Positions 234-17,848 are shown, counted from the stretch's first letter. The stretch: DNA of 34,052 nucleotides from Patescibacteria group bacterium (GCA_043800105.1 JAZDNJ010000047.1:1-34052); one strand, 5' to 3'. The notes: a model not told the origin generated them from the sequence alone. Numbers and translations: made by a program.

Positions 234-713
234 TTAAAGCGCAAGCCTGCTCTCGATCTCCAGCTCCCCCTCAGGGACATGATCGATAAACAGAATGCCG
301 TTCAGATGATCGACTTCATGCTGGACGACACGGGCTTCAAAACCATTAAACTTCATGACCCGCTCCTTACCGGCAAGGTCGGTAAAACGCAGGGTCAGCT
401 CTTTGGCGCGCGAAACCGGTCCCCAAAGCCCCGGCAGACTCAGACAGCCTTCAGTATCTTCCTCAAATTCTTCCGACATTTCCAGGATTTCGGGATTGAT
501 AATCGGAAAAACCTGTTTTTTGTTGATGGTAATATGTGCTATACGCGTGTTCACTCCCACCTGAGGCGCGGCAATACCCACGCCGTTGGTGGCGATCATA
601 CTTTCTTCCATATCTTTCAGCAGCTTCAGGGTTTTTTTGGTGATCTTTCCCTGTTTGGGCGACACCTTGCGAAGTATGGGGTTGTTCTTTCCTTTGGTAA
701 TATCAAGAATCAT
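234..713 (-). CDS. def: Peptide deformylase
   Basis: All three signature motifs are present: GIAAPQVG, EGCLSLPG and QHEVDHLNG. The start is placed at MILDITKG (ATG at 713), which avoids overlap with the prfB stop. The ORF track extends to 746. Confidence 0.93.
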   Translation of the reverse strand: MILDITKGKNNPILRKVSPKQGKITKKTLKLLKDMEESMIATNGVGIAAPQVGVNTRIAHITINKKQVFPIINPEILEMSEEFEEDTEGCLSLPGLWGPVSRAKELTLRFTDLAGKERVMKFNGFEARVVQHEVDHLNGILFIDHVPEGELEIESRLAL

Positions 714-717
714 AGAA

Positions 718-1789
718 TTATTTCGTTTTAAGTAAATAGGCTTCAATAAAATCGTCCAGCTCGCCGTCCATCACCGCCTGCACCTGACTGGTTTCCGCGC
801 CGGTACGGTGGTCTTTGACCATAGTATACGGCTGAAAAACATAAGAACGGATCTGGTTTCCCCAGGCGGCCTCACGGTATCCGCCTTTCAGCTCTTCAAT
901 TTTCTCCTTTTTTTCTTCCAGCAGTTTCTGGGCCAGCCGGCCTTTGAGTACGCTCATTGCCTGGGCTTTGTTCTGCTGCTGACTGCGTTCGGACTGGCAG
1001 GTGACCACCAGACCGGTCGGCAGATGGGTAATGCGCACGGCGGAATCGGTGGTATTAACGTGCTGCCCGCCCGCTCCGCTGGAACGGTAGGTGTCGATTC
1101 TCAGATCTTTTTCATCAATCGCAACCCCCTCATCTTCCGGGATAACCGGCAGAACTTCTACAAGGGCGAAGGAAGTCTGGCGCAGGTTCTTGGCGTTAAA
1201 AGGGGAAAGGCGGACCAGCCGGTGAACGCCGTGCTCGCCTTTTAAAAAACCGTAAGCCATTATTCCCTTTATTTCAATCGTGGCGCTTTTAATTCCGGCT
1301 TCTGCGCCCATAGTTTTTTCAGTGACGGCTGTCTTCCAGCCCTGCTGTTCGGCGTAACGCAGATACATCCGCAAAAGCATCTCCGTCCAGTCCTGGGCGT
1401 CCACTCCTCCCGTACCAGCCGAAAGCACCAAAATGGCATCCATCTGATCGTAAGGACCGCTCAGAAGAAGCTTTACATGTGCCTTTTGGTAAGCATTTTC
1501 CAGCTGCTCCAGCTCCGTTTCAAGCTCCTTTGCTTCAGGACTGTCTTCTTCCACCATCCGGCCAAGTTCTTCGATGTCTTTGGCCTTAGCTGAAAGTTCC
1601 CGCCAGGTTTCTTCAAGGTCGGTCCAGTACTTGAGTTCTTTCAGGACTTTTTCCGCTTTCTTCGGGGCATTCCATAGTTCTTTCTGTTTGGATTTTTCCT
1701 CCGCTTCGGCTTTTTTCGCTTTCAGGCCGATGCCGTCAAAGATAGTGGAGGTCCTGACTGATTTTTTCATTGAGTTTCCGGATGTCCAT
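718..1789 (-). CDS. prfB: Peptide chain release factor 2, with a programmed +1 frameshift
   Basis: It carries the SPF tripeptide (RLSPFNA) and the GGQ motif (SGAGGQHVNTTDSAVRITHLPTG). The frame-0 leader MDIRKLNEKISQDLHYL starts at ATG 1789 and ends at CTT TGA C (1741-1735). The +1 frame continues DGIGLKAKKAEAEE into the 350-aa tracked ORF. Confidence 0.93.
1735..1741 (-). other. RF2 autoregulatory +1 frameshift site CTT TGA C
   Basis: The reverse complement of 1735-1741 is CTTTGAC, and the in-frame TGA occupies 1738-1736. This is the same heptamer as the classical prfB recoding site. Confidence 0.85.
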
Positions 1790-1840
1790 TTGGGCTTATT
1801 CCTGGTTACTGATAATTGCGCCTATTTTAGCATAAATCCC

Positions 1841-1869
1841 TTGAAAAATGCACAAAAAAATGATAGAAT
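1841..1869 (+). promoter_or_regulatory. Sigma70-like promoter for pilus module 1
   Basis: TTGAAA (1841-1846), a 17-nt spacer ending in TGA (extended -10), then TAGAAT (1864-1869). It lies 26 nt upstream of ATG 1895. Confidence 0.55.
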
Positions 1870-1894
1870 AAGAAGATATAAAAAATATGAACCT

Positions 1895-3268
1895 ATGGAA
1901 GCTCCAGAAGACAAAAACAAAGATGTTAAATCCCCGGCCGACATCGGAAGCCTTGAAAAGGAAATGAAAAACGCCCTGAAAGAAGGGGATTTTGAAGGTG
2001 CAAAGACAGTCTACGATAAGCTGAAAAAGGCGGACCCTGAAAACCGTTTGGCGGACAAATTGATGCGGAAGATGCAGAAAATCAAAGAAAAAGAAGGAAA
2101 GAAAGAAAAACTCAGAAAAGCCAAGGAATACAAGACCATGCTCAGGACACTCCTTAAAAACCGTGACGTGGAAAAACTGGAGGCTTTAGCTAAGGAATTT
2201 AAGGAATTCGACCCCGACAGCAGGCATGCCGCAAAATGGCTCCTGCGCGCCGAAAGGCTCAAAGAAAAAACGGGCGGTAAAACGGAAAAAAAGCCCGCGG
2301 TACCCAAACCATTAGCCATCGGACTGAAAAAAGAGGCACCTCTCAGGCTGACTCCGATCCCTACTCCTCCGGTAAAACCGCTTGTAGTTCCAACGCCAAA
2401 TGTAAAACCGCTTGTAGTTCCGCAGCCAAAGCCAAAACCAGCTGAACCCGTAAAGCAACCGGCACCACCGAAAGATGAGCCAAAGGGCAACATCTTCACT
2501 AAAATGTTCGGGAAGAAAGAGGAAACGATGAATGAAAAATCCATCATCGACACAATTGTTGCCAGGACCGACAAGATGAAGGAAAAGGAAGTTATCCAAA
2601 AAGAAATGGAGCCGGAAAAGCCGGACAAAAAAGGGACTTCACTCGGACTGCTGACTTTCTCAAAGGCATTCATGAATTTCATAGTCATTTTTATCGTTTT
2701 CAGCGCGGCCTTTCTTTATGTTGAGTGGATTGATACAGGAAATACCATGCTCAGCCTGGCCGGCATTTCCGAAAATACCGGCGGAAGGCTCCATAGCGCT
2801 TCCGAAAAACTGGGAATCCTCAGGCGTCAGGAAGCCATTCTGAATAAAGACATTGAGCTTTACAAAGAAGGCTACGACGACAAAGCGGTAAGTACCATTG
2901 AATCCATCATCAAGAGCCGCATCAATTGGCCCGATATTTTCGGAAAAATCAATGAGGTGACCAATTCCGTCTATGAACTCAATGACTTCTTTAAATATAT
3001 TGAGTACAACAACTATTCCTTTGACGCAGAAAACCGCACAATTCGTGTGACAGGGGCTCTTAGCGACCCGCTTGGCAGGAATCTGACCAAACTGGTGGAG
3101 CTTGAGGAGGCATTCAAATACTATCCAAAGGACAAGAATAATCCCGATGACACGACTGAGCCGTATTTCACGGGATTTAAAGAGTTTACCTCTTTCAGCA
3201 AAACGCTTGACCCGACAACCAACCGCTATAACTCAAGCTTTCAGCTTTCTTTTGCGCTTAACGAATAA
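1895..3268 (+). CDS. PilN-like bitopic pilus alignment protein with a long K/E/P-rich cytoplasmic N-terminal extension
   Basis: The start is set at ATG 1895 (MEAPEDK), because the tracked ORF upstream overlaps prfB. There is a single TM helix (FMNFIVIFIVFSAAFLYVEWI) at about aa 256-277, followed by a coiled coil. The C-terminal part (RINWPDIFGKINEVT...RTIRVTGALSDPLGRNLTKLVELEEAF) resembles the PilN fold pattern. It is the first gene of a pilB/pilC/pilin operon. Confidence 0.5.
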   Translation: MEAPEDKNKDVKSPADIGSLEKEMKNALKEGDFEGAKTVYDKLKKADPENRLADKLMRKMQKIKEKEGKKEKLRKAKEYKTMLRTLLKNRDVEKLEALAKEFKEFDPDSRHAAKWLLRAERLKEKTGGKTEKKPAVPKPLAIGLKKEAPLRLTPIPTPPVKPLVVPTPNVKPLVVPQPKPKPAEPVKQPAPPKDEPKGNIFTKMFGKKEETMNEKSIIDTIVARTDKMKEKEVIQKEMEPEKPDKKGTSLGLLTFSKAFMNFIVIFIVFSAAFLYVEWIDTGNTMLSLAGISENTGGRLHSASEKLGILRRQEAILNKDIELYKEGYDDKAVSTIESIIKSRINWPDIFGKINEVTNSVYELNDFFKYIEYNNYSFDAENRTIRVTGALSDPLGRNLTKLVELEEAFKYYPKDKNNPDDTTEPYFTGFKEFTSFSKTLDPTTNRYNSSFQLSFALNE

Positions 3269-3288
3269 AATTCTTCATCACTTATCTC

Positions 3289-4068
3289 ATGATTTCACTC
3301 AAAGGCATCATCGGCAAAGCAAACGAACCGTCGAAGGCAAACTACGACACGCCGGCAAAACAGGGAAATATTTTTGGTCAGACACTAAGTGCCGGACAAA
3401 CGGTTAAAACAAAAAAATCGGAGTACATTCAGGCAAAAAACAGAAAAAAAGCTTACCTCAGACTGGGCATCTCTTTTGCGGCTCTCGCGCTCTATTCCGT
3501 TTTCTTTCTTTACGACAACACCGCCGCATACCTGAAGGCGCCATCGGAAATTGCCGATCGTCAGGCGCAAATCAAGGAATATGAAGATATAATAATCCCC
3601 AGTCTTCAGAAAACAAAGGATTTGCACAAGGCCGCTTACGATCAGGAATTTGAAGACACCATTCAGGCTCTGGAAACGGTTTTTCCGACAGAAATTGACA
3701 AGCTTGGAATCGTGCGGCTGTTTGAATCTTTCGCGACGGAAGTAGCCGCCAATTACCCTCCTTTCGAATTTACATCTATCAACTTTTCCAGTCCTCAGCA
3801 AAAAGACGGCTACATGATTATTCCTGTCTCAACCTCCATTCACTCCAGTCTGGTGGGCTTTGATAAGTTCCTCAGCCTGGTCGATCGTTCCGGTTACATT
3901 TATTCCGGAGAAGGGGACAAGAGGGTACTTATCGACAAGAAAATCCGCCTGATGAGCATCTCAAATATCAGTGTAAAATATCGCGGTGTAGATCAGGCCA
4001 CCGGAAAAGATCAGGGGGTGGATTTTAGCGTAAAACTAAACATTTATTCCAGAACTCCGAAAGGATAA
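3289..4068 (+). CDS. PilO-like bitopic pilus assembly protein
   Basis: A basic N-terminus is followed by one TM helix (LRLGISFAALALYSVFFLY), a coiled coil (RQAQIKEYEDIIIPSLQKTKDL) and an alpha/beta C-terminal domain. It lies between the PilN-like gene and pilB. Confidence 0.45.
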   Translation: MISLKGIIGKANEPSKANYDTPAKQGNIFGQTLSAGQTVKTKKSEYIQAKNRKKAYLRLGISFAALALYSVFFLYDNTAAYLKAPSEIADRQAQIKEYEDIIIPSLQKTKDLHKAAYDQEFEDTIQALETVFPTEIDKLGIVRLFESFATEVAANYPPFEFTSINFSSPQQKDGYMIIPVSTSIHSSLVGFDKFLSLVDRSGYIYSGEGDKRVLIDKKIRLMSISNISVKYRGVDQATGKDQGVDFSVKLNIYSRTPKG

Positions 4069-4088: not shown

Positions 4089-5432
4089 TTGGCAAAGCAG
4101 GCAATTCTTAAACCATTGGAAGAAGTCGGCGGTATTTCATCCGCGGCTCCCGCGCCCAAGGCCGAGAGTTATGCAAAAAAAACCGATAATACCGGTGCCG
4201 GCACGGCTGCGCTGACACAGTCACTTCAAAACGCCATCATCGCGGGAAACATTCCGCAGATCGTGATGTATGCCATTACGCTGGCCCTGATCATGTCGGC
4301 TTCTGACGTGCACATAGAACCGGAAGAAAAGACCGTTCGCATTCGTCTCCGGATAGACGGTGTGCTTCGTCATATTGTGGAATACCCGAACAACATACAT
4401 CCGGCCGTCGTTTCCCGCGTGAAGATCATGTCCAGTTTAAAAATAGATGAACAGCGCGTGCCACAGGACGGCCGCACGCAGGTAACCACGGAAGAAGGCC
4501 GGAATATTGACCTTCGCGTCAGCACTTTACCTACCGTGAACGGCGAAAAAATTGTGATGCGTCTGCAGGATAAAACGAAGACAATTCCAGATTTGCCCGA
4601 ACTAGGACTGAAGGGAAGCTCTCTAGAAATAATGGAAGGCTTCACAAAACTTCCAAACGGTATCATTCTGGTTACCGGACCGACCGGTTCCGGTAAAACC
4701 AATACGCTTTACTCAATTCTGCACCGGCTGAATCAGGTTGGCGTGAACATTATGACATTTGAAGATCCGGTGGAGTATCAGATGGACGGCCTGAACCAGT
4801 CGCAGATCCGCCCCGAAATCCAGTATGACTTTTCAACGGGGCTAAGAACAGCCCTGCGCCAGGACCCCGATATCATTATGGTGGGGGAAATCCGCGACCA
4901 GGAAACCATCGAAATCGCCATCCGGGCGGCCCTCACGGGTCATCTGGTGCTTTCGACCATTCACACTAACAGCGCCGTTTCCACCCTGACCCGTATAACG
5001 GACATGGGCGTGAAACCCTTTCTTATCACTTCATCAATTCGCGGAATCATTTCACAGCGACTGGTGCGTCGCATCTGCGAATTCTGCAAGGAGGAATATG
5101 TTCCTGAAGCTGAGGTGACAGCAGATATTAAAGAAGAACTTAAAAATATTTCCGCCAAAGACATTGACCCTGCTTTGCTCAGAGACATGAAGTTATACAG
5201 GGGCAGGGGCTGTGAAAAGTGCAACGGGCTTGGATACAAAGGCCGGATTGCCGTTTTTGAAATACTGCAGATGGATCGCGAAGTCGGGCAACTCGTACTT
5301 CAGAGCGCCCCGGATTCCCAGCTGGAAGATCAGGCCGGAAAAGGCGGAATGATCACCCTTCGTCAGGATGGCTTTATCAAAGCGCTTCAAGGCATCACTA
5401 GTCTTGAAGAAGTCTTCCGCATAGCCCAGTAA
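4089..5432 (+). CDS. pilB: Type IV pilus / T2SS assembly ATPase of the GspE/PilB family (short form)
   Basis: It has Walker A VTGPTGSGKTNT, an Asp box and Walker B DPDIIMVGEIRD, and a His box GHLVLSTIHTN. It also has the tetracysteine motif CEFC...CEKCNGLGYKGR. The start is uncertain (TTG 4089 or TTG 4116), and no in-frame ATG lies upstream of the conserved SASDVHIEP. Confidence 0.9.
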   Translation: MAKQAILKPLEEVGGISSAAPAPKAESYAKKTDNTGAGTAALTQSLQNAIIAGNIPQIVMYAITLALIMSASDVHIEPEEKTVRIRLRIDGVLRHIVEYPNNIHPAVVSRVKIMSSLKIDEQRVPQDGRTQVTTEEGRNIDLRVSTLPTVNGEKIVMRLQDKTKTIPDLPELGLKGSSLEIMEGFTKLPNGIILVTGPTGSGKTNTLYSILHRLNQVGVNIMTFEDPVEYQMDGLNQSQIRPEIQYDFSTGLRTALRQDPDIIMVGEIRDQETIEIAIRAALTGHLVLSTIHTNSAVSTLTRITDMGVKPFLITSSIRGIISQRLVRRICEFCKEEYVPEAEVTADIKEELKNISAKDIDPALLRDMKLYRGRGCEKCNGLGYKGRIAVFEILQMDREVGQLVLQSAPDSQLEDQAGKGGMITLRQDGFIKALQGITSLEEVFRIAQ

Positions 5433-5444
5433 ATTTTTGATTTT

Positions 5445-6638
5445 ATGGTTTCTCCTTCCCTACATATAGGCGTTCAGACTGGCAGAACAGGTATACCCGA
5501 AGCTCCGAAACAAAAGCCCGTGACTAAAGTGGGCGGGGCAGGCTGGTCCGAGGTGCTGAACGATTTTTTATCCCAGTTTCAGTCCATCAAAATAACCGAC
5601 AAGGTCACCTTTTTCAGACTGCTGGCGACCATGATCAACGCCGGCATATCGATTGTAAAGGCGCTGAATATTCTGATGGATCAGACGGAAAACAGACACA
5701 TGAAGTCTATCGTGCGGAATATCGTGGAAAAAATTGAAACCGGAAACAGTTTCTCGCAGGCCCTCGCGACATATCCGAAGTATTTCACAGGGGCGCAGAT
5801 CGGCATGGTGGAGGCCGGCGAAGCCTCCGGCCGCCTTAACCAGACACTCCTTCAGATTGCCGACGAAACGGAAAAACAGGCCGCCTTCAGATCCCGCATC
5901 AAAGGAGCCATGATATACCCCATTGTCATTATAGCCATCATGGTGGCCGCTTTTGTGGCGGTCATGGTGCTGGTCATGCCGAAAATCAAAGAAATGTTCG
6001 AGGGGCTTGGAGGCGAACTGCCCGGAGTAACCCTGAAACTCATCGCTATTTCTGACTGGTTTGTGTCAAGCTGGCTTGGAATACCCAATTATATTTGGCT
6101 GGTGATTCTTATCATTGCCTTTATCACACTTTTTATTCAGTGGAAAAAAACAAAGTGGGGAAATTATGTGTGGATGAAATTCGTTTTCGCTTTGCCGATT
6201 TTCGGTAAACTGTCAAAAAAGGCTTCGCTGGCTCATTTTTGCCGGGGGCTTTCTACCATGGTTGCCAGCGGCATTCCTATTATAAAGGCTCTGCGCATTA
6301 CAGCCGCCAGCGTCGGAAACCTTATATACCAGCGACGTATCAACCAGATAGCCGACGATGTGAGGCATGGCATTACCATGGCGGAAAACATGAAAGACGA
6401 TGAATATTACTTTCCGAATATGGTCGTGGGTATGATCGGGGTGGCCGAACAAACCGCCCAGATCGACAGCATTTCCCAAAAACTTGCCGATTACTACGAA
6501 GAAGAAGTGGATAATATTGTAAAAGGACTTTCATCTCTGATGGAGCCTCTTATTATGGTAATTCTTGGCGCCGGTGTCGCCTTTCTGGTTATCGCGGTAA
6601 TGGAACCGATTCTCTCAGCATCCGACCTGGCTGTTTAA
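5445..6638 (+). CDS. pilC: Type IV pilus platform protein of the PilC/GspF family
   Basis: It has two T2SSF-type repeats, each containing a GE-x-SG-type motif or its degenerate equivalent (FSQALATYPKYFTGAQIGMVEAGEASGRLNQTL, and a second repeat with MVVGMIGVAEQTAQID). It has three TM segments and is typical in size at 397 aa. Confidence 0.9.
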   Translation: MVSPSLHIGVQTGRTGIPEAPKQKPVTKVGGAGWSEVLNDFLSQFQSIKITDKVTFFRLLATMINAGISIVKALNILMDQTENRHMKSIVRNIVEKIETGNSFSQALATYPKYFTGAQIGMVEAGEASGRLNQTLLQIADETEKQAAFRSRIKGAMIYPIVIIAIMVAAFVAVMVLVMPKIKEMFEGLGGELPGVTLKLIAISDWFVSSWLGIPNYIWLVILIIAFITLFIQWKKTKWGNYVWMKFVFALPIFGKLSKKASLAHFCRGLSTMVASGIPIIKALRITAASVGNLIYQRRINQIADDVRHGITMAENMKDDEYYFPNMVVGMIGVAEQTAQIDSISQKLADYYEEEVDNIVKGLSSLMEPLIMVILGAGVAFLVIAVMEPILSASDLAV

Positions 6639-6654
6639 AATTACAAAAAAAGTC

Positions 6655-6684
6655 TTGCGTTGAACAAATTTTGTATGCTATCTT
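6655..6684 (+). promoter_or_regulatory. Possible extended -10 promoter upstream of pilin 1
   Basis: TTGCGT (6655-6660), an 18-nt spacer, then TGC TATCTT (the -10 element is 6679-6684). This call is weaker than the other promoter calls. Confidence 0.3.
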
Positions 6685-6719
6685 TGACATGCAAATTATT
6701 TTATAAAACAAAAACAAAA

Positions 6720-7349
6720 ATGAAAAAGACTACCAAAAGCGCTTTTCATCGCGGTTTTACCCTCATCGAACTGATGATCGTCATCGTCATTCTCGGTATT
6801 TTGATGGGTACTATTTTACCGCGTTTGTCCGGCGCACAGGGCCGCGCCCGTGACACAGGACGTGTGGCCGACCTTAATTCCATTGCCCAGGCATTGGAAC
6901 TTTATTACGATGATTTCGGTCAATATCCTGCAAATGCTGGTGATGGAACACCTGATTGTATCGCAACCGCAAGCCTACCTGCTTTCGATGTTTTTAAAAC
7001 CTATTTCAAAGCTGACAATACACCAACACCTCCTTCATCTAGTGAGATAGTTACTTTTGATGGTGTAACTTGTACCGGAAGCTACATGTACGTTGCTCTT
7101 GACAGCAAAGGAGCTACTGATCAGGCATATGCAGTGATTGCAAATGTAGAAATCGCACCTAAAGGTAATATGATTATTGACAACGGACTCACAACTCCGG
7201 CAATTGCAACCGCATGGACACACGGTACTGCTTCGTCCATCAATGATGTATTAGGTGCTATTAATGCAGATGCTGATAAACTGGTTCAAGCCGATGATGA
7301 AGATTCTGATGGAGATAGCACGGTTTATGTTGTATCTAGCGGAACCTAA
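6720..7349 (+). CDS. pilA: Type IV pilin / GspG-like major pilin (module 1)
   Basis: It has a class III signal peptide, MKKTTKSAFHRG|FTLIELMIVIVILGIL, with Glu5. It also has the GspG-like motif GAQGRARDTGRVADLNSIAQALELYYDDFGQYP. The start is set at ATG 6720, and the gene is followed by a terminator. Confidence 0.88.
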   Translation: MKKTTKSAFHRGFTLIELMIVIVILGILMGTILPRLSGAQGRARDTGRVADLNSIAQALELYYDDFGQYPANAGDGTPDCIATASLPAFDVFKTYFKADNTPTPPSSSEIVTFDGVTCTGSYMYVALDSKGATDQAYAVIANVEIAPKGNMIIDNGLTTPAIATAWTHGTASSINDVLGAINADADKLVQADDEDSDGDSTVYVVSSGT

Positions 7350-7365
7350 TACTTCTCAGGTAATC

Positions 7366-7395
7366 AAAAAAACCCCGCCAATTGGTGGGGTTTTT
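7366..7395. terminator. Bidirectional rho-independent terminator between pilA (+) and nusA (-)
   Basis: AAAAAAA CCCCGCC AATT GGTGGGG TTTTT. The GC-rich stem is flanked by an A-run and a T-run. Confidence 0.8.
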
Positions 7396-7409
7396 AGTAT
7401 CTGAGTTTC

Positions 7410-8795
7410 TTATTCCAGTTCTTTCAGGATTTTCTGGGCGCTGACCTTACCTATTCCATCAATGCCCTCAAGGGCTTTCAGGTCCATACCTTTCAAATCG
7501 GCCAGTCCGGCATAACCGGCGGCTTCAAGTTTGGTAATAACCGCCTTGGTCAGCTTGCCCCATTCGCCATTTTTGGCGGTTTTAGTTTCAGCTTTACCCT
7601 CGTCACCCTCTTCCTGAAGGGACTTCTCAGCCTCTTCCAGTTCTTTTTCGGTGGCGGCCGCTTCCAGTTCCTTATCTTCTATACGTCTGCCGGCTGTCGG
7701 ATGATCGGATTTCATAAGTTCTTTAAGTTTTTCCTTAAAGGCGGGGAGCTGTTCAAGATTATATAAGTCAAGTTCGTATCCGGTTAAATCGGAAGCCAGG
7801 CGGACATTCTGCCCCTGCTTACCTATGGCCATGGGCCTTTCCGATTCTTCCACAAACACGGCGGCGCGCTTAGGGACTTTAAGATCTTCTCCGGCATTCA
7901 CAATGATCACTTCGGCAATTTTGGCCGGCTGAAGGGCGGTTGCAATGAATTCCTTTGGGTCTTTGGTCCACTCAATAATGTCCACGCGCTCACCATTCAG
8001 TTCATTCATCACCGCCTGAATACGAACGCCCTTTTGGCCGATACATGCACCTACGGGATCGATTTTTTCATTTTCCGCCCACACGGCGACCTTACTGCGG
8101 ACGCCCGCGTCACGGGCGATGGATTTGATTTCCACTTCGCCCTCGGCAATTTCGGGAATCTCCATTTCCAGCAGACGGACTACCAAATTCGGATGCGTGC
8201 GTGAAATAGAAAGCTGAGGGCCTTTACTGGTGTGCACTACTTTATCAAGGTAAACCTTAATGCGCTTTCCGTTGTAATATTTTTCGTTCTGAATCTGGTC
8301 GCGGTGACCAAGCATCACGTTATGCTTTTCAATCTGTATATGTACCACGCCATTCTCGACACGCATCACCTGAGCCGTCATGATTTCGTTTTCACGGTTC
8401 TTAAACATCTCGTAAAGCGCGTCGCGTTCAGCCTCCTGAAGGCGCTGCAGAATAACCTGTTTGGCGGACTGCGCGGCAATACGCCCGTATTCCAGTGGGG
8501 TCACATCGATTTTGATGATGTCGCCGATCTCCACATCCTTTTTCATCTTCTGTGCCTCTTTCAGCGAAATCTCAATATTCGGATTCTCCACATTTTCAAC
8601 CACTTCCTTTACCAGAAGCACGGTGGCAATGTCGCTATCATCTTGCAGAACAATTTCAATTTCCTGTTCCTTATTTCCGAAGTCTTTTCGGTAGGCGGTG
8701 GCAAGAGCCGCCTTAATCGTGTCGATCACGCGTTCATAAGGGATATTTTTTTCATCACAGATCTGATGGATGGCGGCAAAAAATTGCGGTTTCAT
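7410..8795 (-). CDS. nusA: Transcription termination/antitermination factor NusA
   Basis: The N-terminal domain (FFAAIHQICDEKNIPYERVIDTIKAALATAYRK) is followed by an S1 domain and two KH domains (GACIGQKGVRIQAV and AIGKQGQNVRLASDLTG). The C-terminus has a helix-hairpin-helix (GIDGIGKVSAQKILKELE). The start is set at ATG 8795 (MKPQFF). Confidence 0.93.
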   Translation of the reverse strand: MKPQFFAAIHQICDEKNIPYERVIDTIKAALATAYRKDFGNKEQEIEIVLQDDSDIATVLLVKEVVENVENPNIEISLKEAQKMKKDVEIGDIIKIDVTPLEYGRIAAQSAKQVILQRLQEAERDALYEMFKNRENEIMTAQVMRVENGVVHIQIEKHNVMLGHRDQIQNEKYYNGKRIKVYLDKVVHTSKGPQLSISRTHPNLVVRLLEMEIPEIAEGEVEIKSIARDAGVRSKVAVWAENEKIDPVGACIGQKGVRIQAVMNELNGERVDIIEWTKDPKEFIATALQPAKIAEVIIVNAGEDLKVPKRAAVFVEESERPMAIGKQGQNVRLASDLTGYELDLYNLEQLPAFKEKLKELMKSDHPTAGRRIEDKELEAAATEKELEEAEKSLQEEGDEGKAETKTAKNGEWGKLTKAVITKLEAAGYAGLADLKGMDLKALEGIDGIGKVSAQKILKELE

Positions 8796-11474: not shown

Positions 11475-12995
11475 ATGAGCCCCCAAGCCAACGATTATAC
11501 CGCAGAAACAAGCCAAAAGGTCATCAAGTATCTTGAAGAAAACGGCTACCTTAAAGTTCAGGACATTAAAATCCTGAGCAAAAAGTCCAAAGACAAAGGG
11601 GTGACCGCCCTGAATATTTTCCTCGAGGAAAACCCCCATCTGCACGAAAAAACGGACAAGCTCATCAGCTACCTGTCCGAAAAAAAAGCGGATCAGAATC
11701 CTGACATCAAGACCAAAAGTAAGGTCAAAATTCTTGATGACGACGATGCCAAAGCGGGGGACGCGAATACCTTTGTTTTTGATATGCTCAAAAAATGTAT
11801 AGAGCGCGGCGCCTCGGATATTCACATCGACATGGCCTTATCAGGCGAGGGGCAGGCTGGCTTCAAGCTTCGCTTCAGGGTGGATGGCCGCTGTTTTGAT
11901 GAAGGCTTTTACGACGACATCACCCTGTATCGCGGAATTGTGAATAAACTTAAACTGGACGCGGGCTTAAAAATCGATGAGCGAAGACTTCCTCAGGACG
12001 GCCGAATATCCTTTGAGTTAAACGGCAGGGTTCACAACTTCCGTCTTTCGTTCATGCCAAATACCATCCGGAATAATCAGGAGGAAAAAATCGTCCTCAG
12101 GCAGATGGCGGATGTGAGCAAATGTAACCTGTACGATCTGGGTATTCTGCCTTACGCCATTAAATACCTCGAAGAGGCCATAAAATATCCGCATGGTTTC
12201 ATTTGCGTGACAGGGCCGACCGGCAGCGGTAAAACCACCACCCTTTACGCTCTGCTTCAGGAAATCGACCGCGAAAGTAAAAACGTGCTGACACTTGAAG
12301 ATCCGATCGAAGCCGAGATTCCTATGGTGAATCAGTCCCAGATGTTTCACCGCATCGGCTACGACTTTGCTTCGGGTCTGCGCGTGATTCTCCGCCAGGA
12401 CCCCGATATTATCATGGTGGGGGAAATGCGTGACGAAGAAACGGCGCTCCGGGCCTTCGAGGCGGCCAATACGGGTCATCTGGTCTTTTCCACACTTCAT
12501 ACCAACACCGCCGCCTCTACCGTCACCCGTCTTCTGCAAATGGGAGTTCCGCATTATTTCATCAGCTCCGCGCTCAAATTCATTGTGGCTCAGCGTCTGG
12601 TGCGTCGCGTATGTACCGCCTGTCAGGTGCCGCATCCTCACATGAATGAGGTTCAGAAAGAAATCGAAAGAGCCTTCCAGAACGCCTCGGCGGTGGTGAA
12701 GGATATTTACAAAGAAAAAGCCGCGTCCGCCACTATTCTGGTTCCGCACATAAACGGCAGTATCTGTGAAAGATGCAAAGGAACCGGCTACAAGGGGCGA
12801 ATCGGAATTTTTGAAATCATGAAAGTCACCGACAAAATCCGTCACATCATCAGTTTTGAAAACGGCAGTGAGGATAAAATTCAGGAAGTGGCCATAAGCG
12901 AGGGAATGCTCAGCATTCAGCAATACGGCTATCTGCTCGTTCTGGCCGGCCTGACCACCTTTGAGGAAGTGACCAATACGGTCCTTTCGGCCTGA
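11475..12995 (+). CDS. pilB: Second type IV pilus / T2SS assembly ATPase of the GspE/PilB family, with one N-terminal T2SSE_N-like domain
   Basis: It has Walker A VTGPTGSGKTTT, DPDIIMVGEMRD, GHLVFSTLHTN, and the tetracysteine CTAC...CERCKGTGYKGR. The N-terminus (KVIKYLEENGYLKVQDIKIL...) resembles the GSPII_E N-terminal domain. Confidence 0.9.
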   Translation: MSPQANDYTAETSQKVIKYLEENGYLKVQDIKILSKKSKDKGVTALNIFLEENPHLHEKTDKLISYLSEKKADQNPDIKTKSKVKILDDDDAKAGDANTFVFDMLKKCIERGASDIHIDMALSGEGQAGFKLRFRVDGRCFDEGFYDDITLYRGIVNKLKLDAGLKIDERRLPQDGRISFELNGRVHNFRLSFMPNTIRNNQEEKIVLRQMADVSKCNLYDLGILPYAIKYLEEAIKYPHGFICVTGPTGSGKTTTLYALLQEIDRESKNVLTLEDPIEAEIPMVNQSQMFHRIGYDFASGLRVILRQDPDIIMVGEMRDEETALRAFEAANTGHLVFSTLHTNTAASTVTRLLQMGVPHYFISSALKFIVAQRLVRRVCTACQVPHPHMNEVQKEIERAFQNASAVVKDIYKEKAASATILVPHINGSICERCKGTGYKGRIGIFEIMKVTDKIRHIISFENGSEDKIQEVAISEGMLSIQQYGYLLVLAGLTTFEEVTNTVLSA

Positions 12996-13012
12996 CATTT
13001 GTCAGGTGTTTT
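12991..13012 (+). terminator. Short hairpin plus a partial T-tract, overlapping the pilB2 stop codon (weak terminator or attenuator)
   Basis: CCTGACA TT TGTCAGG (12991-13006) is followed by TGTTTT. The stem is only 7 bp and the loop is minimal. Confidence 0.3.
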
Positions 13013-13046
13013 AGCGGGATGTTACAATTAAATCAACCTTTCCTCT

Positions 13047-16000
13047 ATGCTCAGGAAAACAAGACTCGCCCTTCCCCTCGGCTTTTCAGCCCTCCTCGCA
13101 GTCCTGCTTTTTCATGCAGCCTCCTTTGCCTCCTCTTTCTACGACGTTCCCCCGGATGACCTCCTCTTTTCCCCCTACATCCAAAAACTCTACGACAGTC
13201 ACCTTATCACCGGTGACACGCAAAACGGCAAAGAAACCTATTCCTTCCGTCCCAAGGATCCCCTGTCCCGTGCCGAGTTCACCAAGGTGGCCGTAGGCGT
13301 CAAGCTGGCCGAGAAGTTCGGACAGACGGAAAACTGGCAGGCCAAAAGCGCCTACGAGATGACGGAAACGGTTTTAAAGGACAAACTCCTTTACTTCCAC
13401 CAATGTGACAACTCCGACATCCCGCAGTGTGAAAACCAGTGGGGTGCCGACATCAAAGGTGTCTGTAACGTCTGTCTTCTCACCAATCAAAAACCCTTCA
13501 CCGATGTGAAGGAAAAAGACCGTAACTGCGAGGAGCAGGGAATCTGTTCCCCCTGGTATTCCGAATACATCTACTATGCCCTCCGCAAAGGAATGTTGCA
13601 GGGATACAAAGACATCTCTTCCTCACCCTCCTCCATCTCTTATTCCTTCCACCCCGACCAGTCCATCCTCAGAATCCACGCCCTCAAGCTCATCATGGCC
13701 GATGACGGAGCCGTGGCCCCCGAAGCCGATGAACGCTACCGCCGTCTTTCCCAGACCGCCAAAGCCAGAGGTTCTTACTTTCCCGAATGCCTGAGCGGAG
13801 CCGAGAACTTTATTCTGAACAATAACGGTGGCTCCGGACACCCCGAAGGAGAGAAGCTCCTCCAGTATGCCCTCCTTGCCGATAAACTCGACTTCTTCGG
13901 TAACCGGTGTCAGGTGTTTAGTACTTACGGAGCTAACACCCCTCAGGCCAAAGCCGACTTCCTTCAGTCCTACATGTCCCGCCGGGAAGCGGCCCGTTAC
14001 TTTGTCCTTTCCACTTCCTATTCACCCCTTATAATTAGCCCATTTGATGACGAGACGGTCGACGGCATTGTAAGTAATACCGAAGATCCCGAAAGTGTTG
14101 TCAAAGAAACGGTGAATGAAGATGGCGAAATCGTCAGGGATTTTAGTGATGTCACGATCAAGACCTATGCACAGAATGCACCCATTCCCATCAAAGATAT
14201 TGCGAGCCCCGATTCTCCATTTGATAGTACGTTTAATAGAGCTGCCTGCATCTTGAGTTCCTTTACGCCCAAAATCTGCAAGGATCCAAGTATGGCCAAT
14301 TGCAGCGATGTGCCCAATGGCTCCCGTATTCACACAACAGATGAGGAATATTACGGCAGGACCCCGCCCGGCTACTATACCTGGCTCTGGCATGGTGTGA
14401 TTTATAAAAGCATTGGTTACTATGTACCTCTGGATGACATCGATTTTGACTGTGAAAGAACCCTGCAATGGGAGGAGGCGAAAAGACAGGCAGAGGCTGA
14501 AGCAGCCAGGATAAGGGCATATAATGCCAAAATAGCGGCACAAAATGCCGCAAATGCAGCAGCCTATAAACAACAGCAGCCTGCCGCAGCAGCGCAGAAT
14601 TCACAGTTACCCTGGTATCTTGAGGGTCTAAACCCCTTCGTGCCATTCGTGAAGCCATTTATTCAGCCATATATCGATATTGGCAAAAATATCATCACGT
14701 ACAACATTCAGCAGACAAATTTGAGACAGGACATGCCATGGATTTATACGGCAGATTATTATGGAAATAACAAGGACAAAAGGGTTTCTAATCCATTTGA
14801 AGATATTATTAATGGGGGCATAGGAAGTGGAAAATCGATAGAACAATTTTTGACACCTGTATCGGGAAATAGTGTTTTACATGGATTTGGTACAGAGGTA
14901 ATGGATGGTTTACTAGGGGTAGGCAAGTCGCTTGCAGATAACATCGGAAAGGCTGCAAAGGATTTACACATGCTCACTGTTGACGGTGTCGAAATGGTTG
15001 GGAATGGCATTAAATATGTTACGACTGAAGCCGACAAATTGATAACAAATCAATTAGATAGCGTCCCTGATTGGCTGAAACCTACCATTCAGCCTATCAG
15101 AAATAGCTATAATCTTGGGAAGGGGTTCGTAGAGGGCGGAGCGGCAATGACAGAGGGCGTATTTCAGATCTATAAGGATCCAATTGGAGTAGTTAGTGGG
15201 ATAGGAACTGCCATCGCCCACCCCAGACAGACATGGTCGGCGATTAGTAAGGGGCTTAATGATTTTGCAAACGAATCACTGTCATCCACGGATAAATTGT
15301 ACGAGAATTCGGGGCGAATTATCTTCGAAATTGGCTCCTGGATTGTGGGTGCCGGTGAAGTGAAGTCGGTAATAAAGGCGGCAGAAATAGCGAAAGTCGG
15401 CAATACTGCGGCAAAAACAGCAGACCTGCTTAAAATAGTTGATGCCGTACAGGATGTGGGGACGATTGCAAAGGGTTTGGAAAAGATTGAAGATGTTTCA
15501 AGGGTTCAGAAAGTGCTGGCAGGCATAACCGACATGGAAAAAACGGCTGGCATTATTTCCAAAATGCAACCCGCAAAAGCCGCTGAAGTCGTTTCAGGAT
15601 TGAGTAAATCCACAATAGGAAATATACTCACAAAAATGGATGATATCGCCGCCGCCAAACTGATTACTACGGCAAAGGATGCCGAAAAAATGACTCAAGC
15701 TGTGGACACACTGGGCCTGACAAAAATAAGAAACATTGTCAGTAAACTCAATCCGGATGAAGCGGCCAATGTTATTTCCAAGATGGATGCAGGTAAAGCG
15801 GGAAAAATAATCACTGGCGTTGACCCTGTGAAGGTGGCGAGTATTCTTGAAAAAATTGATGTTGGAACAGCAGCAAAAGTAGTAAAAGAAATGTCTGAAG
15901 CCGAGGCTGGCTCAGCTTTGTTGAAGATTGGAGATGCAAACAAAGTTGCCAAAGTTTTACAGACGCTTAGTTTTGACAAGGCGGATGCTATACTTACAAA

Positions 16001-16523
16001 AATGGCAGAGCAATTAAGAAAGGATTATTCAAGCCTGGTTCCTGGTTTCAAAAAACAGCTTCAGGCTGTCGCGGATAAATTTGATGTTACACTTGATGTC
16101 GAAAATGTCCTTAAAGAGACGAAAGAAATCGTGTTGAAAGCACAGTTATCAAAAAGAGACATCTCGCAAGTGAATGACCTCATGCGAGGAAGATGGGTAA
16201 TTAATACGGAAGAAGAAGGTTATAAGATTGCTGATTATGTCGAGAGCAATTTCAAGATAATAGAGTTCAAAGATAATTTCGTCATACCGAAAAACTCAGG
16301 TTACAGGAGTTTACACTACTACATTGAATTCGATGGTAGAATCGCGGAAGTCCAAATCGTACCACGAACCATGTTTGAGGCAAATGAGAAGACACATATT
16401 ATTTTAGATAGATTGGATATCCTGAAATTGGATCCACTAAAAAATGCGGATGAAATTACTAAATTAAACTATGAAATTCTTAAAATGAATGATGAGGCAT
16501 GGGAATTATTCGTTAATAAATAA
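13047..16523 (+). CDS. Exported SLH-domain protein with a C-terminal divergent RelA/SpoT-like nucleotide pyrophosphokinase domain (candidate polymorphic toxin)
   Basis: It has a signal peptide (MLRKTRLALPLGFSALLAVLLFHAASFASS) and an SLH-like repeat (FYDVPPDDLLFSPYIQKLYDSHLITGD...FRPKDPLSRAEFTKVAV), plus two looser SLH-like repeats. A Cys-rich region and an A/Q-rich linker follow. Next comes a Gly-rich helical segment, then MgtE_N-like helical repeats at aa ~835-985. The last ~150 aa contain, in order, NDLMRGRWVI, FKDNFVIPKNSGYRSLHYYIEF (aa 1085-1090 = GYRSLH) and AEVQIVPRTMFEANEKTH (E1101). This matches the order of the RSH synthetase motifs. Confidence 0.6.
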   Translation: MLRKTRLALPLGFSALLAVLLFHAASFASSFYDVPPDDLLFSPYIQKLYDSHLITGDTQNGKETYSFRPKDPLSRAEFTKVAVGVKLAEKFGQTENWQAKSAYEMTETVLKDKLLYFHQCDNSDIPQCENQWGADIKGVCNVCLLTNQKPFTDVKEKDRNCEEQGICSPWYSEYIYYALRKGMLQGYKDISSSPSSISYSFHPDQSILRIHALKLIMADDGAVAPEADERYRRLSQTAKARGSYFPECLSGAENFILNNNGGSGHPEGEKLLQYALLADKLDFFGNRCQVFSTYGANTPQAKADFLQSYMSRREAARYFVLSTSYSPLIISPFDDETVDGIVSNTEDPESVVKETVNEDGEIVRDFSDVTIKTYAQNAPIPIKDIASPDSPFDSTFNRAACILSSFTPKICKDPSMANCSDVPNGSRIHTTDEEYYGRTPPGYYTWLWHGVIYKSIGYYVPLDDIDFDCERTLQWEEAKRQAEAEAARIRAYNAKIAAQNAANAAAYKQQQPAAAAQNSQLPWYLEGLNPFVPFVKPFIQPYIDIGKNIITYNIQQTNLRQDMPWIYTADYYGNNKDKRVSNPFEDIINGGIGSGKSIEQFLTPVSGNSVLHGFGTEVMDGLLGVGKSLADNIGKAAKDLHMLTVDGVEMVGNGIKYVTTEADKLITNQLDSVPDWLKPTIQPIRNSYNLGKGFVEGGAAMTEGVFQIYKDPIGVVSGIGTAIAHPRQTWSAISKGLNDFANESLSSTDKLYENSGRIIFEIGSWIVGAGEVKSVIKAAEIAKVGNTAAKTADLLKIVDAVQDVGTIAKGLEKIEDVSRVQKVLAGITDMEKTAGIISKMQPAKAAEVVSGLSKSTIGNILTKMDDIAAAKLITTAKDAEKMTQAVDTLGLTKIRNIVSKLNPDEAANVISKMDAGKAGKIITGVDPVKVASILEKIDVGTAAKVVKEMSEAEAGSALLKIGDANKVAKVLQTLSFDKADAILTKMAEQLRKDYSSLVPGFKKQLQAVADKFDVTLDVENVLKETKEIVLKAQLSKRDISQVNDLMRGRWVINTEEEGYKIADYVESNFKIIEFKDNFVIPKNSGYRSLHYYIEFDGRIAEVQIVPRTMFEANEKTHIILDRLDILKLDPLKNADEITKLNYEILKMNDEAWELFVNK

Positions 16524-16526
16524 CAT

Positions 16527-16976
16527 ATGAAAAAAGATGTGAAGCGGATCAAATATATGTCGGCCGAAGGGATTCCGGTTGTGGTAATTACTAACAAAGA
16601 TGGGAAACAAGATATAAAGGCCTATACTTCCACTGGTAGTTATGATTTTTCGCCTTTTGCCCTATTTAAATGGGGAAGCCGAATTTGCAAGGAGGAATAT
16701 GATGATTTGGTAAGGCGCATTGGTTATGAGAGTGAGCTTGCGATACTAAAATCGGCGGAAAAGAAGACTGTAAAAGATAAAGCTAAAATTAAGAAGATCA
16801 CACAATTTATGCAGGGGGTAGTAGAGAAACAACTGAATGGTCATTACAACAGAATTAGTTTGAGCGAGGAATTAGCTGAGCTGGAAGCGATTCACAAAAA
16901 AACGCCCAAAATAATTGTTAGAATGGAGGAAATACAAAAGTATTTAAGAGAAGATAGAAAAAAAAAGAACAACTAG
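16527..16976 (+). CDS. Hypothetical 149-aa cytoplasmic protein, a candidate cognate immunity/antitoxin protein
   Basis: Its ATG lies 3 nt after the toxin-like ORF's stop codon. It shares the same AT-rich composition. It has no signal peptide or TM helix and no motif I recognise. Confidence 0.4.
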   Translation: MKKDVKRIKYMSAEGIPVVVITNKDGKQDIKAYTSTGSYDFSPFALFKWGSRICKEEYDDLVRRIGYESELAILKSAEKKTVKDKAKIKKITQFMQGVVEKQLNGHYNRISLSEELAELEAIHKKTPKIIVRMEEIQKYLREDRKKKNN

Positions 16977-16999
16977 TAGTTTCTATAATCCACTATTAT

Positions 17000-17848
17000 A
17001 TGATCCGAATCATCTTTGGCATCCTAATCCTGATCGGCTTAGCCAACCAATTCATAGTTATGAAGGCGCCCACTTTTGACAACGTAGCCGAGATGCAGGG
17101 CTACGTAGCAGCGAAGATAGCTTTCCTGGTCTTGGCTATCTGGCTTATTTCTTCGGGCATCAAAAAAAGAAGGGCAAAGCAAGGTAAAACCGAGGAAAAG
17201 TCAAAGATGGGAATGATTGACTTCTTCAAGTCATATTTCGGCGGATACAAGGCCTTTCTGCATAAAAATATCGAGCTTAAAAAACCACCCTACTGGCTTT
17301 TAGTCATTTGGTTCTACGGGGTTGTCAGGGTACTTGTCAGGCTCGATTCGTCGGTGGCCGGAATAGGGTTTAATTTTAATATCCAGGGCTGGTTCGATTT
17401 GTGGGTAACATCTCTGGTTCTTGGCGCGGTCATCGGTTTTATTGGTTACTGGCTGGTGGGTTCCATTTTCCATCTGGGAGTCCTTTTGGCAGGCGGTCAC
17501 AAAAAGGCCAAAACGTCCCGCATGATTTTCATTTATTCCGGAATTCCTCACACAATTGCGGTGATGGCATTGTTTTTTGTCGGCATGCTGGCACTACGGG
17601 AAAATTACTTCTTAAACGGCGGTTTGGATCCAAGGTGGTTTTATATTTCGGGAGCCGCTTCATTTTATTCCATTGTTCTGGGGTACATTGGGGCAGTGGA
17701 GGTTCAGAAAACCAAAAAGATCCGCAGTATTCTGCTTTTTCTGGTAGTTCCGATTGCGCTTTACGCCTCTATTTACCTTTATTCATACGCTCAGTCGCAG
17801 GCAGACTACAAACAGATGATGCAGTCGATTCAGACGGAGGAGCAATAA
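17000..17848 (+). CDS. Polytopic membrane protein, Yip1-domain-like
   Basis: It has about 6 hydrophobic helices. The segment SIFHLGVLLAGGHKKAKTSRMIFIYSGIPHTIAVMALF resembles the Yip1/DUF1282 signature (h..a.l.GG.g....t.....Ys..P). Confidence 0.45.
   Translation: MIRIIFGILILIGLANQFIVMKAPTFDNVAEMQGYVAAKIAFLVLAIWLISSGIKKRRAKQGKTEEKSKMGMIDFFKSYFGGYKAFLHKNIELKKPPYWLLVIWFYGVVRVLVRLDSSVAGIGFNFNIQGWFDLWVTSLVLGAVIGFIGYWLVGSIFHLGVLLAGGHKKAKTSRMIFIYSGIPHTIAVMALFFVGMLALRENYFLNGGLDPRWFYISGAASFYSIVLGYIGAVEVQKTKKIRSILLFLVVPIALYASIYLYSYAQSQADYKQMMQSIQTEEQ

Follow-up and report, generated by a model that had tools for sequence, protein, structure and literature searches.

A GC-rich core with AT-rich tips is a classical feature of the Rhs elements of Escherichia coli. 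RelA/SpoT domains were described in 2012 as toxin tips on type VII secretion system (T7SS), MuF and type III secretion system proteins, in an account that does not mention SLH domains (Zhang et al., PMC3482391). Also known are the effector Tas1/Apk1 and about 600 exported alarmone synthetases (EAS). If EAS with Sec signals are placed in the cytoplasm, they are toxic; the survey describing them makes no mention of Patescibacteria, SLH or MgtE_N (Ahmad et al. 2025, PMC12691689). Here we analyze a 34,052-nt stretch of DNA from a Patescibacteria group bacterium (GCA_043800105.1, JAZDNJ010000047.1:1–34052; contig C95 of its genome, hereafter called the window), in which an open reading frame (ORF) at positions 13047 to 16523 of the plus strand encodes a protein of 1158 amino acids (aa), P0001. 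Very probably, this protein is a polymorphic effector of a Patescibacteria (candidate phyla radiation, CPR) lineage that combines a wall-held scaffold with exchangeable toxin/immunity modules. When the literature was searched for polymorphic toxins in combination with Patescibacteria, the candidate phyla radiation or SLH, no account of this family came up. With it, both polymorphic toxins and exported alarmone synthetases would be known from a further phylum and on a scaffold of a new kind.

Relatives were collected with residues 1 to 530 of P0001 as the query; the sample comprises ten close homologues only. Nine proteins from other metagenomes (791–1179 aa long), one of them annotated by NCBI as from a Patescibacteria group bacterium, share the scaffold at 44 to 69% identity. 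In 30-aa bins, the close homologues are 60 to 90% identical to about residue 330 and show a second conserved block at residues 391 to 470. Similarity is lost after about residue 480, and only the protein of locus L001 is collinear to its end, at 59% identity. A preliminary description of this DNA had guessed the limit of conservation to be at about residue 520; it was right that the N-terminal region is conserved and the ends diverge, but the limit lies nearer residue 480. Uniform conservation of the whole protein is not seen, in that the homologue ends belong to unrelated families: RelA_SpoT domains of three subtypes, DUF6973, a DUF676-like lipase, Amidase_2 and unassigned domains, to which more distant genomes of the family add M15-like peptidase ends, Gly-rich hydrophobic ends and others. 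A putative N-terminal presentation region that is shared, followed by C-terminal domains that are unrelated, is the pattern by which polymorphic toxins are recognized.

The gene that follows varies with the tip. Relative loci keep their gene order, and only the ORF or ORFs between the toxin gene and a gene for a Yip1-domain polytopic membrane protein (17000–17848, plus strand; Pfam Yip1 E 8.2e-7) change. In the window this position is taken by P0002, a 149-aa candidate cognate immunity protein (16527–16976, plus strand) whose gene begins 3 nt beyond the stop codon of the toxin. The one relative of P0002 is encoded behind the same RSH (RelA/SpoT-homologue) tip type in L001, at 40% identity. Likewise, the downstream ORFs of L004 and L009a, both behind the second RSH subtype, are 26% identical, and those of L006 and L007, both behind DUF6973 tips, are 41% identical. 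No match was found across tip types among the loci compared. The expectation that the next ORF would vary together with the tip was therefore borne out, matches being confined to the same tip class, and the downstream small gene is specific to tip type in three independent tip classes.

The tip itself, residues 1001 to 1158 (16047–16523, plus strand), was identified by Pfam, an AlphaFold2 (AF2) model and Foldseek as an RSH pyrophosphokinase resembling small alarmone synthetases (SAS). Pfam RelA_SpoT (PF04607) matches residues 1023 to 1112 with 41.5 bits against a gathering score of 27 (E 1.8e-10), and the AF2 model of residues 985 to 1158 (nt 15999–16520) has a pLDDT of 89.7 and a pTM of 0.82. 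Foldseek returned 60 PDB matches at E ≤ 0.001, and the best 50 listed are all RSH enzymes; fold matches to the model include RelP (6fgj, E 2e-9), RelQ, Rel and CapRel (7ztb). The best superposition is with SaEAS (8vx3, TM 0.73, rmsd 3.2). Tas1 (6ox6) matches at E 1.3e-5 with an identity of only 15%, and the housekeeping SAS enzymes and SaEAS match better. Residues D1044 and E1101 align with D264 and E323 of RelSeq (1vj7), which we take to be the catalytic Asp and Glu, and both are invariant in five tips of three subtypes; an SGYR motif occupies residues 1084 to 1087. We are confident that the modeled tip has the alpha/beta nucleotidyltransferase fold of SAS enzymes with both catalytic residues. 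The fold matches (RelP, SaEAS, Rel, CapRel, Tas1) do not tell apart the predicted acceptor, which may be ATP, GTP/GDP or tRNA.

Immediately upstream lie MgtE_N/FliG-like helical repeats, taken as residues 831 to 1000 (15537–16046, plus strand; Pfam MgtE_N E 3e-15, the Pfam stretch being residues 901 to 997) and forming the first half of the toxin module. Repeats and tip are common to L001 and, weakly, to L002. A full-library search with the tip found close relatives only in P0003 (60%) and P0012 (53%), along with many distant RSH domains that end long proteins. The last ~330 residues of P0037, an RHS-repeat protein of 2216 aa, are collinear with the MgtE_N and RSH module (29% identity over 328 aa, E 2e-23), and P0012 (353 aa) consists of this module without the scaffold, at 42% identity, and starts at the equivalent of about residue 765. 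Given the collinearity of P0037 and P0012, the exchangeable toxin unit would extend from about residue 765–830 to the end of the protein and include the next ORF, and would be smaller than the low-GC region described below. The same toxin module sits on an unrelated delivery scaffold, as is seen in polymorphic toxin systems.

Two further observations concern RSH-like domains and tips elsewhere. The genome under study encodes a stand-alone RSH-like protein of 268 aa (C57:13383–14189, minus strand; …HPSGYRDLLFNIRLED…ITEIQFQ…) that lacks a signal peptide, and is 25 to 29% identical to the second RSH tip subtype of P0007 and P0008 (E 1e-12). No ORF of at least 90 aa separates it from the next gene, and it may be either a housekeeping SAS or a toxic SAS (toxSAS). 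In P0014 (1139 aa), an additional conserved C-terminal domain (…WQDVGI…GEA.RIQNAA.KI.KPINVVGSRA.G.A..LSDWDY…) follows an RSH tip, and the same type of domain is the only tip at L045 28–1878; no family was assigned to it.

The N-terminal half of P0001 has the features of a protein held at the cell surface. A Sec-type signal peptide is predicted at residues 1 to 30 (13047–13136, plus strand; MLRKTR..., a hydrophobic core and SFA/SS), and the sole hydrophobic segment of the protein spans residues 4 to 32 (Kyte–Doolittle 2.07). The universal scaffold core, residues 31 to 330 (13137–14036, plus strand), is recognized from Pfam, identity and composition; it is Cys-rich, includes an SLH domain at residues 31 to 78 (31.6 bits against a cutoff of 20.8), and is 64 to 74% identical in the eight closer homologues and 53% identical in L011. 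One SLH stretch passes the cutoff on its own in P0001; some homologues show two stretches, and the neighboring PilN-like protein has three. With an SLH domain after a predicted signal peptide, P0001 fits the description of a putative SLH-anchored surface protein. The core is followed by a semi-conserved middle at residues 331 to 475 (14037–14471, plus strand; delimited by identity bins), in which residues 331 to 390 are variable and the second conserved block reads YYGRTPPGYYTWLWHGV...DDIDFDCE. This middle occurs as about three alleles among the homologues, and SH3_3 matches the equivalent region of P0011.

A low-complexity Ala/Gln linker (residues 476–535; 14472–14651, plus strand; 30% A, 12% Q) comes next. 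Family-wide homology stops at its start, with identity collapsing from the 30-aa bin at residue 481 on. Between linker and repeats, residues 536 to 830 (14652–15536, plus strand) are Gly/Ile/Val-rich and Cys-free, and were delimited by identity and composition as a pre-toxin module. This region is common to homologues with other tips; its identity is 49% to L001, 42% to L004 and 32% to L009b. It has no Pfam match at E up to 1, and a word-based search gave no further carriers; it is a candidate presentation or translocation module. Twelve cysteines lie in residues 1 to 475 and none in residues 476 to 1158, a distribution that fits a disulfide-stabilized extracellular scaffold joined to a translocation-competent C-terminal half. 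A promoter-like site (TTGTCA-18-TACAAT with a TG extension; 12999–13028, plus strand) precedes the ORF, scoring 10/12 in a consensus scan that is a pattern match only.

A sharp compositional break inside this ORF had been reported in the preliminary description. All eight of its hand counts of G+C in 60-nt lines were exact on recount, and so was the excess of 30 C over 4 G at 13621 to 13680. Total GC falls from 0.514 at 13047 to 14600 (GC skew −0.149) to 0.410 at 14601 to 16523 (skew +0.188) and to 0.369 in the P0002 gene (skew +0.325). For 14601 to 16976 as a whole, GC is 0.402. In the source genome (957,796 bp in 119 contigs, GC 0.473, 89% complete), fewer than 1% of all 2400-bp windows are as low (1st percentile 0.407, minimum 0.391). 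The G+C content of third codon positions (GC3) descends stepwise over the same three segments, from 0.589 to 0.397 to 0.389, with a mean of 0.544 (sd 0.07) for genome ORFs. Synonymous choices shift as well: C/(C+T) at two-fold pyrimidine-ending codons drops from 0.66 before the break to 0.31 after it, and the GC of four-fold sites from 0.72 to 0.43, which rules out amino-acid composition as the sole cause of the break.

No other of the 210 genome ORFs of at least 400 aa comes close to the toxin ORF in the strength of its internal change point. The log-likelihood ratio of the toxin ORF is 31.2 for GC3 (runner-up 15.0, median 2.3) and 54.1 for C at third codon positions (C3; runner-up 15.5). With 500 permutations the maxima were 7.9 for GC3 and 9.6 for C3, far below the observed ratios, and the observed break was never approached. 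A significant change point is indeed present, then, and the best single one for total GC between 12000 and 18500 falls at 14657. This agrees with the earlier placement of the break at 14600 to 14640 together with the linker, the end of which it marks, whereas the GC3 change point is at codon 316 (nt 13995; support 13977–14070) and the C3 change point at codon 447 (nt 14388). The synonymous-site break is earlier than the total-GC break and is stepped. Total GC stays high until ~14650 because the Ala/Gln linker keeps the GC of codon positions 1 and 2 high.

About half of the contrast is owed to an abnormally C-rich scaffold, which is the more abnormal of the two halves. Its four-fold C of 0.60 is above the genome 99th percentile (0.51) and its four-fold G of 0.12 is below the 1st percentile; in the scaffold core, GC3 is ~0.67 and C3 ~0.50, and GC3 is intermediate in the semi-conserved middle. 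The tip, by comparison, is only at about the 5th percentile of the genome in composition, with a GC3 that resembles that of ribosomal-protein genes (0.39–0.49). Because ribosomal-protein genes are low in GC3, a low GC3 alone is no sign of foreign origin here. The ribosomal-protein and EF-Tu genes in question are on contig C25:2700–14800 (minus strand), and their GC3 is below the long-ORF mean of 0.54. Usage typical of high expression was considered for the scaffold and ruled out, given that highly expressed genes are not C3-rich. The scaffold at 13047 to 14000 and those of L001 to L011 all display an extreme strand-asymmetric codon bias, with half of their codons ending in C and a third-position GC skew of −0.3 to −0.65. 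This bias is common to all homologues and has no counterpart in ribosomal-protein genes.

Composition follows conservation along the protein. In 30-aa bins, GC3 and C3 correlate with mean identity to nine homologues with Spearman rho values of 0.77 and 0.78, and positions 1 and 2 with a rho of only 0.32; for the first 540 aa alone the values are 0.83 (GC3) and 0.71 (C3). The bins are autocorrelated and the p-values are consequently overstated. All ten close homologues, whatever their tip, show this descending GC3 gradient, and their downstream ORFs are also low in GC3. At Yip1, composition is normal again (GC3 0.56 in the window), and GC3 returns to the local norm of 0.52 to 0.60 in four of the five homologous loci that carry Yip1, the exception being L010 (0.42). 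Most distant paralogues have the gradient too (0.85 to 0.3 in genome G001, for example), and it scales with genome GC, running from 0.39 to 0.18 in L011. It is also kept between the window and L001, which have the same whole architecture at 59% identity. The GC3 drop in every homologue and its retention between these two loci therefore point to a property maintained for a long time. The contrast belongs to the family as a whole and does not record a single recent graft into this genome. The break marks the border between the conserved scaffold and the exchangeable modules. Present in every homologue, it is best explained by a lasting difference between a C3-rich scaffold and a pool of AT3-rich cassettes, and not by a recent import. 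More generally, the classic signature of a GC-rich core and an AT-rich tip can persist as a family property and is no tool for dating transfer.

What maintains the contrast is a separate matter. One possibility is a pool that remains AT-rich over time and supplies the cassettes; the other is that different long-term mutational or selective regimes act on the two halves. On the second account the modules would still be exchanged, yet the break would derive, for example, from codon choice tied to export during translation and to folding of the Cys-rich scaffold, or from GC-biased conversion of the homology arm, which recombines often. We regard this as possible, if doubtful. It would accommodate a break that occurs with every tip and shifts with genome GC (L011, G001), that persists between the window and L001 despite saturating divergence, and whose stronger outlier is the scaffold (four-fold C above the 99th percentile), the tip being equal to ribosomal-protein genes in GC3. 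Against it, low GC3 runs into the separate downstream ORF and ends at Yip1, and it therefore follows the cassette and not the protein. Moreover, GC-biased conversion is strand-symmetric and does not explain a four-fold C of 0.60 beside a four-fold G of 0.12, and the codon adaptation index (CAI) shows no adaptive difference.

The break might also be an assembly chimera, in which two unrelated metagenomic fragments were joined inside the ORF. The genome is metagenome-assembled and as fragmented and incomplete as noted above. Yet the reading frame runs uninterrupted through the junction over 1158 codons. L001, assembled independently from a different sample, matches the window in order throughout the gene and in the next ORF, Yip1 and the pilus genes, and eight further loci have the same architecture and break. 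We judge this explanation extremely improbable.

Phylogeny adds to the evidence for modularity. In the scaffold tree, P0001 pairs with a DUF6973 carrier and not with L001, and carriers of the same tip are not sisters. By the approximately unbiased (AU) test, a clade of the two DUF6973 carriers is rejected (p 0.009) and one of the second RSH pair is not (p 0.32). For a clade of the window and L001 the p value is 0.063, so that discordance between scaffold and tip in P0001 itself is no more than borderline. P0001 is a mosaic, with junctions near residue 330, at residues 480 to 535, at about residues 765 to 830 and near residue 1000. The proposal of C-terminal cassette exchange is thus upheld as far as the modular pattern goes, but several junctions take the place of a sharp single graft line. 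Only short, chance-level matches were found when flanking direct or inverted repeats of a mobile-element insertion were sought.

Orphan cassettes, for which a look elsewhere in the genome had been suggested, are common but not required in polymorphic toxin systems; they occur in relatives (L010, L007, P0012) but were not found, by tblastn, in the genome itself. L010 has an orphan tip and immunity pair at 6160 to 7193, and L007 has tandem immunity copies. At L010 5664–7193, 3′ of Yip1, an immunity-gene fragment is followed by an orphan lipase-type C-terminus (38% identical) and an immunity homologue (37%). Locus L009 (contig k141_1614693) carries two full-length members in tandem (584–3577 and 4838–8266) with near-identical scaffolds and different tips, one of RSH subtype 2 and the other unassigned, possibly with a ParB-like end. 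Each copy has its own small ORF or ORFs behind it, and a single Yip1 gene follows the pair.

The scaffold is present in 8 of 30 other genomes of the same family, one of which has seven matches, and in none of four genomes of the same genus. The genome with seven matches is G001 (same family; loci L036–L040 and L046), where scaffold GC3 is 0.8 to 0.93 and tip GC3 0.27 to 0.43. Its L046 copy is apparently disrupted: the sequence contains a run of X, and beyond about residue 190 the reading is aberrant and rich in Arg, Gly and Pro. The same-genus genomes, which lack the scaffold, gave no Yip1 match in a search that had no positive control, and their PilB is only ~40% identical.

The toxin gene occupies a defined place in a pilus locus. 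Directly 5′ of it is pilB2, encoding a second pilus/type II secretion system (T2SS)-type assembly ATPase (11475–12995, plus strand; Pfam T2SSE E 4.7e-104), and T2SSE is found in the same place in L002 and L003. The 5′ side of the toxin gene thus comprises an 829-aa surface protein and this ATPase, and the 3′ side the 149-aa ORF, the Yip1 protein, pilin-like genes, a PilN-SLH protein, T2SSF and more pilins. Yip1 forms a conserved downstream boundary of the variable region: it follows the variable ORFs in L001, L002, L004, L009 and L010, with 58 to 74% identity to the protein of the window in L001, L004 and L009b and ~32–33% in L002 and L010. No type V (T5SS) or type VI secretion system (T6SS) genes were seen among the scanned ORFs of the window. 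Two type II toxin–antitoxin pairs lie close to effector genes in relatives, namely MNT/HepT at L006 613–1216, directly 5′ of the effector in the place of pilB, and ParE/Phd at L002 1096–1648, adjoining nusA.

That the gene has a fixed slot next to a second PilB-type ATPase suggests that effector and pilus may be functionally connected. A bolder proposal, which we advance tentatively and consider rather unlikely, is a system for effector delivery by Patescibacteria epibionts, which would be the first to be described. Its SLH-anchored, surface-displayed polymorphic effectors, with alarmone-synthetase, lipase, amidase and peptidase tips among them, would be hard-wired in a pilus operon between a PilB-type ATPase and a Yip1-like protein, and pilus contact or a T2SS-like piston might present or release the toxin onto a host or competitor cell by a contact-dependent route distinct from T5SS, T6SS and T7SS.

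On the evidence above, we propose the following mechanism for P0001 as a polymorphic effector, in which toxicity, substrate, immunity function, target-cell entry and any role of the pilus are all putative. Sec export and SLH anchoring of the scaffold (residues 1 to ~475) would display the protein on the epibiotic cell surface. The Ala/Gln linker would join this scaffold to the Cys-free C-terminal half of exchangeable modules, which would carry the module that enters the target cell. There, the RSH tip would probably poison the cytoplasm. Synthesis of (p)ppApp or (p)ppGpp with depletion of ATP could be responsible, or else pyrophosphorylation of tRNA. P0002 would be the matching immunity protein and keep the producer and its kin safe. 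For sister proteins whose ends are of the amidase, M15-like peptidase or lipase type, the site of action would be the envelope of the target cell. Units of tip plus immunity gene, and independently the modules upstream of them, have probably been swapped by recombination within a variable region framed by the conserved scaffold on one side and by Yip1 and the pilus genes on the other.

Several observations weigh against this interpretation. No route into a target cytoplasm has been demonstrated for a Sec-exported, wall-anchored protein. P0002 has no match in Pfam, NCBIfam or PDB sequences and no homologue by word-based search; its AF2 model is poor (pLDDT 69) and has no fold match at E ≤ 0.001, solved immunity proteins included, so that an immunity role is argued from position and co-variation only. 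A PADLOC hit to P0002 (E 0.003) was judged not credible. The tblastn search of the 89%-complete genome for orphan tips or extra immunity genes was, as stated, negative. L001, the closest relative, is collinear over its whole length, and no exchange event can therefore be dated to this lineage. If the break is taken to be foreign DNA not yet ameliorated, the contrast should not survive ~40% protein divergence, as it does; the window and L001 share their architecture yet differ by about this much, and a recent un-ameliorated import therefore cannot explain it. The codon-adaptation profile that had been suggested as a check does not separate the halves: with 18 ribosomal-protein and EF-Tu genes as the reference, CAI has a narrow spread (sd 0.022) and places the scaffold at the 33rd percentile, the tip at the 17th and the immunity ORF at the 8th, which makes it uninformative here.

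Published Sec-type exported alarmone synthetases, finally, lack immunity genes and may act outside cells (PMC12691689), and they provide the model for a different function. P0001 could be a surface-displayed alarmone synthetase for extracellular signaling or nucleotide scavenging, its downstream ORF being unrelated or an intracellular safeguard before export. The best superposition of the tip is with such an enzyme (SaEAS), the SLH anchor and the signal peptide imply an extracellular location of the enzyme, and several sister proteins carry peptidoglycan hydrolases that likewise act outside the membrane. We nevertheless consider this function improbable. The published Sec-type EAS genes are without adjacent small ORFs (PMC12691689), and here such an ORF is present and changes together with the tip subtype; the module also stands at the end of an RHS-repeat protein, a type of scaffold classically used for toxin delivery; relatives carry orphan tip/immunity pairs; and the C-terminal half is free of Cys beside a scaffold with 12, as is expected for a part that unfolds and translocates. 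A polymorphic effector is the function we favor.

Patescibacteria live attached to other microbes, and how they harm or control them and compete for hosts is largely obscure. The locus offers a concrete candidate, a modular surface effector family with a putative RelA/SpoT-type toxin among its tips and tied by gene position to a pilus apparatus that has already been implicated in host attachment.

Comparison with known systems shows likenesses and differences. The toxSAS enzymes (FaRel, FaRel2, PhRel, CapRel) use the RSH SYNTH fold as a growth-arresting toxin that is neutralized by the product of an adjacent gene. They are small cytoplasmic toxins of toxin–antitoxin or antiphage systems, and P0001, with a signal peptide and an SLH domain on 1158 aa, is not a toxSAS module. 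Tas1/Apk1 of Pseudomonas aeruginosa, a (p)ppApp synthetase that is secreted by the type VI system and paired with the immunity protein Tis1, resembles P0001 in having a C-terminal RSH SYNTH tip and an adjacent immunity gene, the latter being a candidate here. The export route is different, however, the identity is as low as given above, and P0002 is unlike any solved immunity protein. The exported alarmone synthetases SaEAS and VpEAS share the combination of a Sec signal peptide and an RSH SYNTH domain. These are small, single-domain proteins without neighboring immunity genes, whereas P0001 is large and has SLH, MgtE_N repeats and a co-varying ORF. In organization, P0001 parallels the Rhs and CdiA polymorphic toxins, which likewise have a conserved N-terminal part for delivery or presentation and unrelated tips each with a cognate small ORF; orphan pairs are seen in relatives of P0001. 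In contrast to those proteins, P0001 has no RHS/YD or hemagglutinin repeats and no VENN or PxxxxDPxGL junction motif, and its tip is instead borne by a Sec-exported, Cys-rich SLH scaffold encoded in a fixed slot of a type IV pilus operon.

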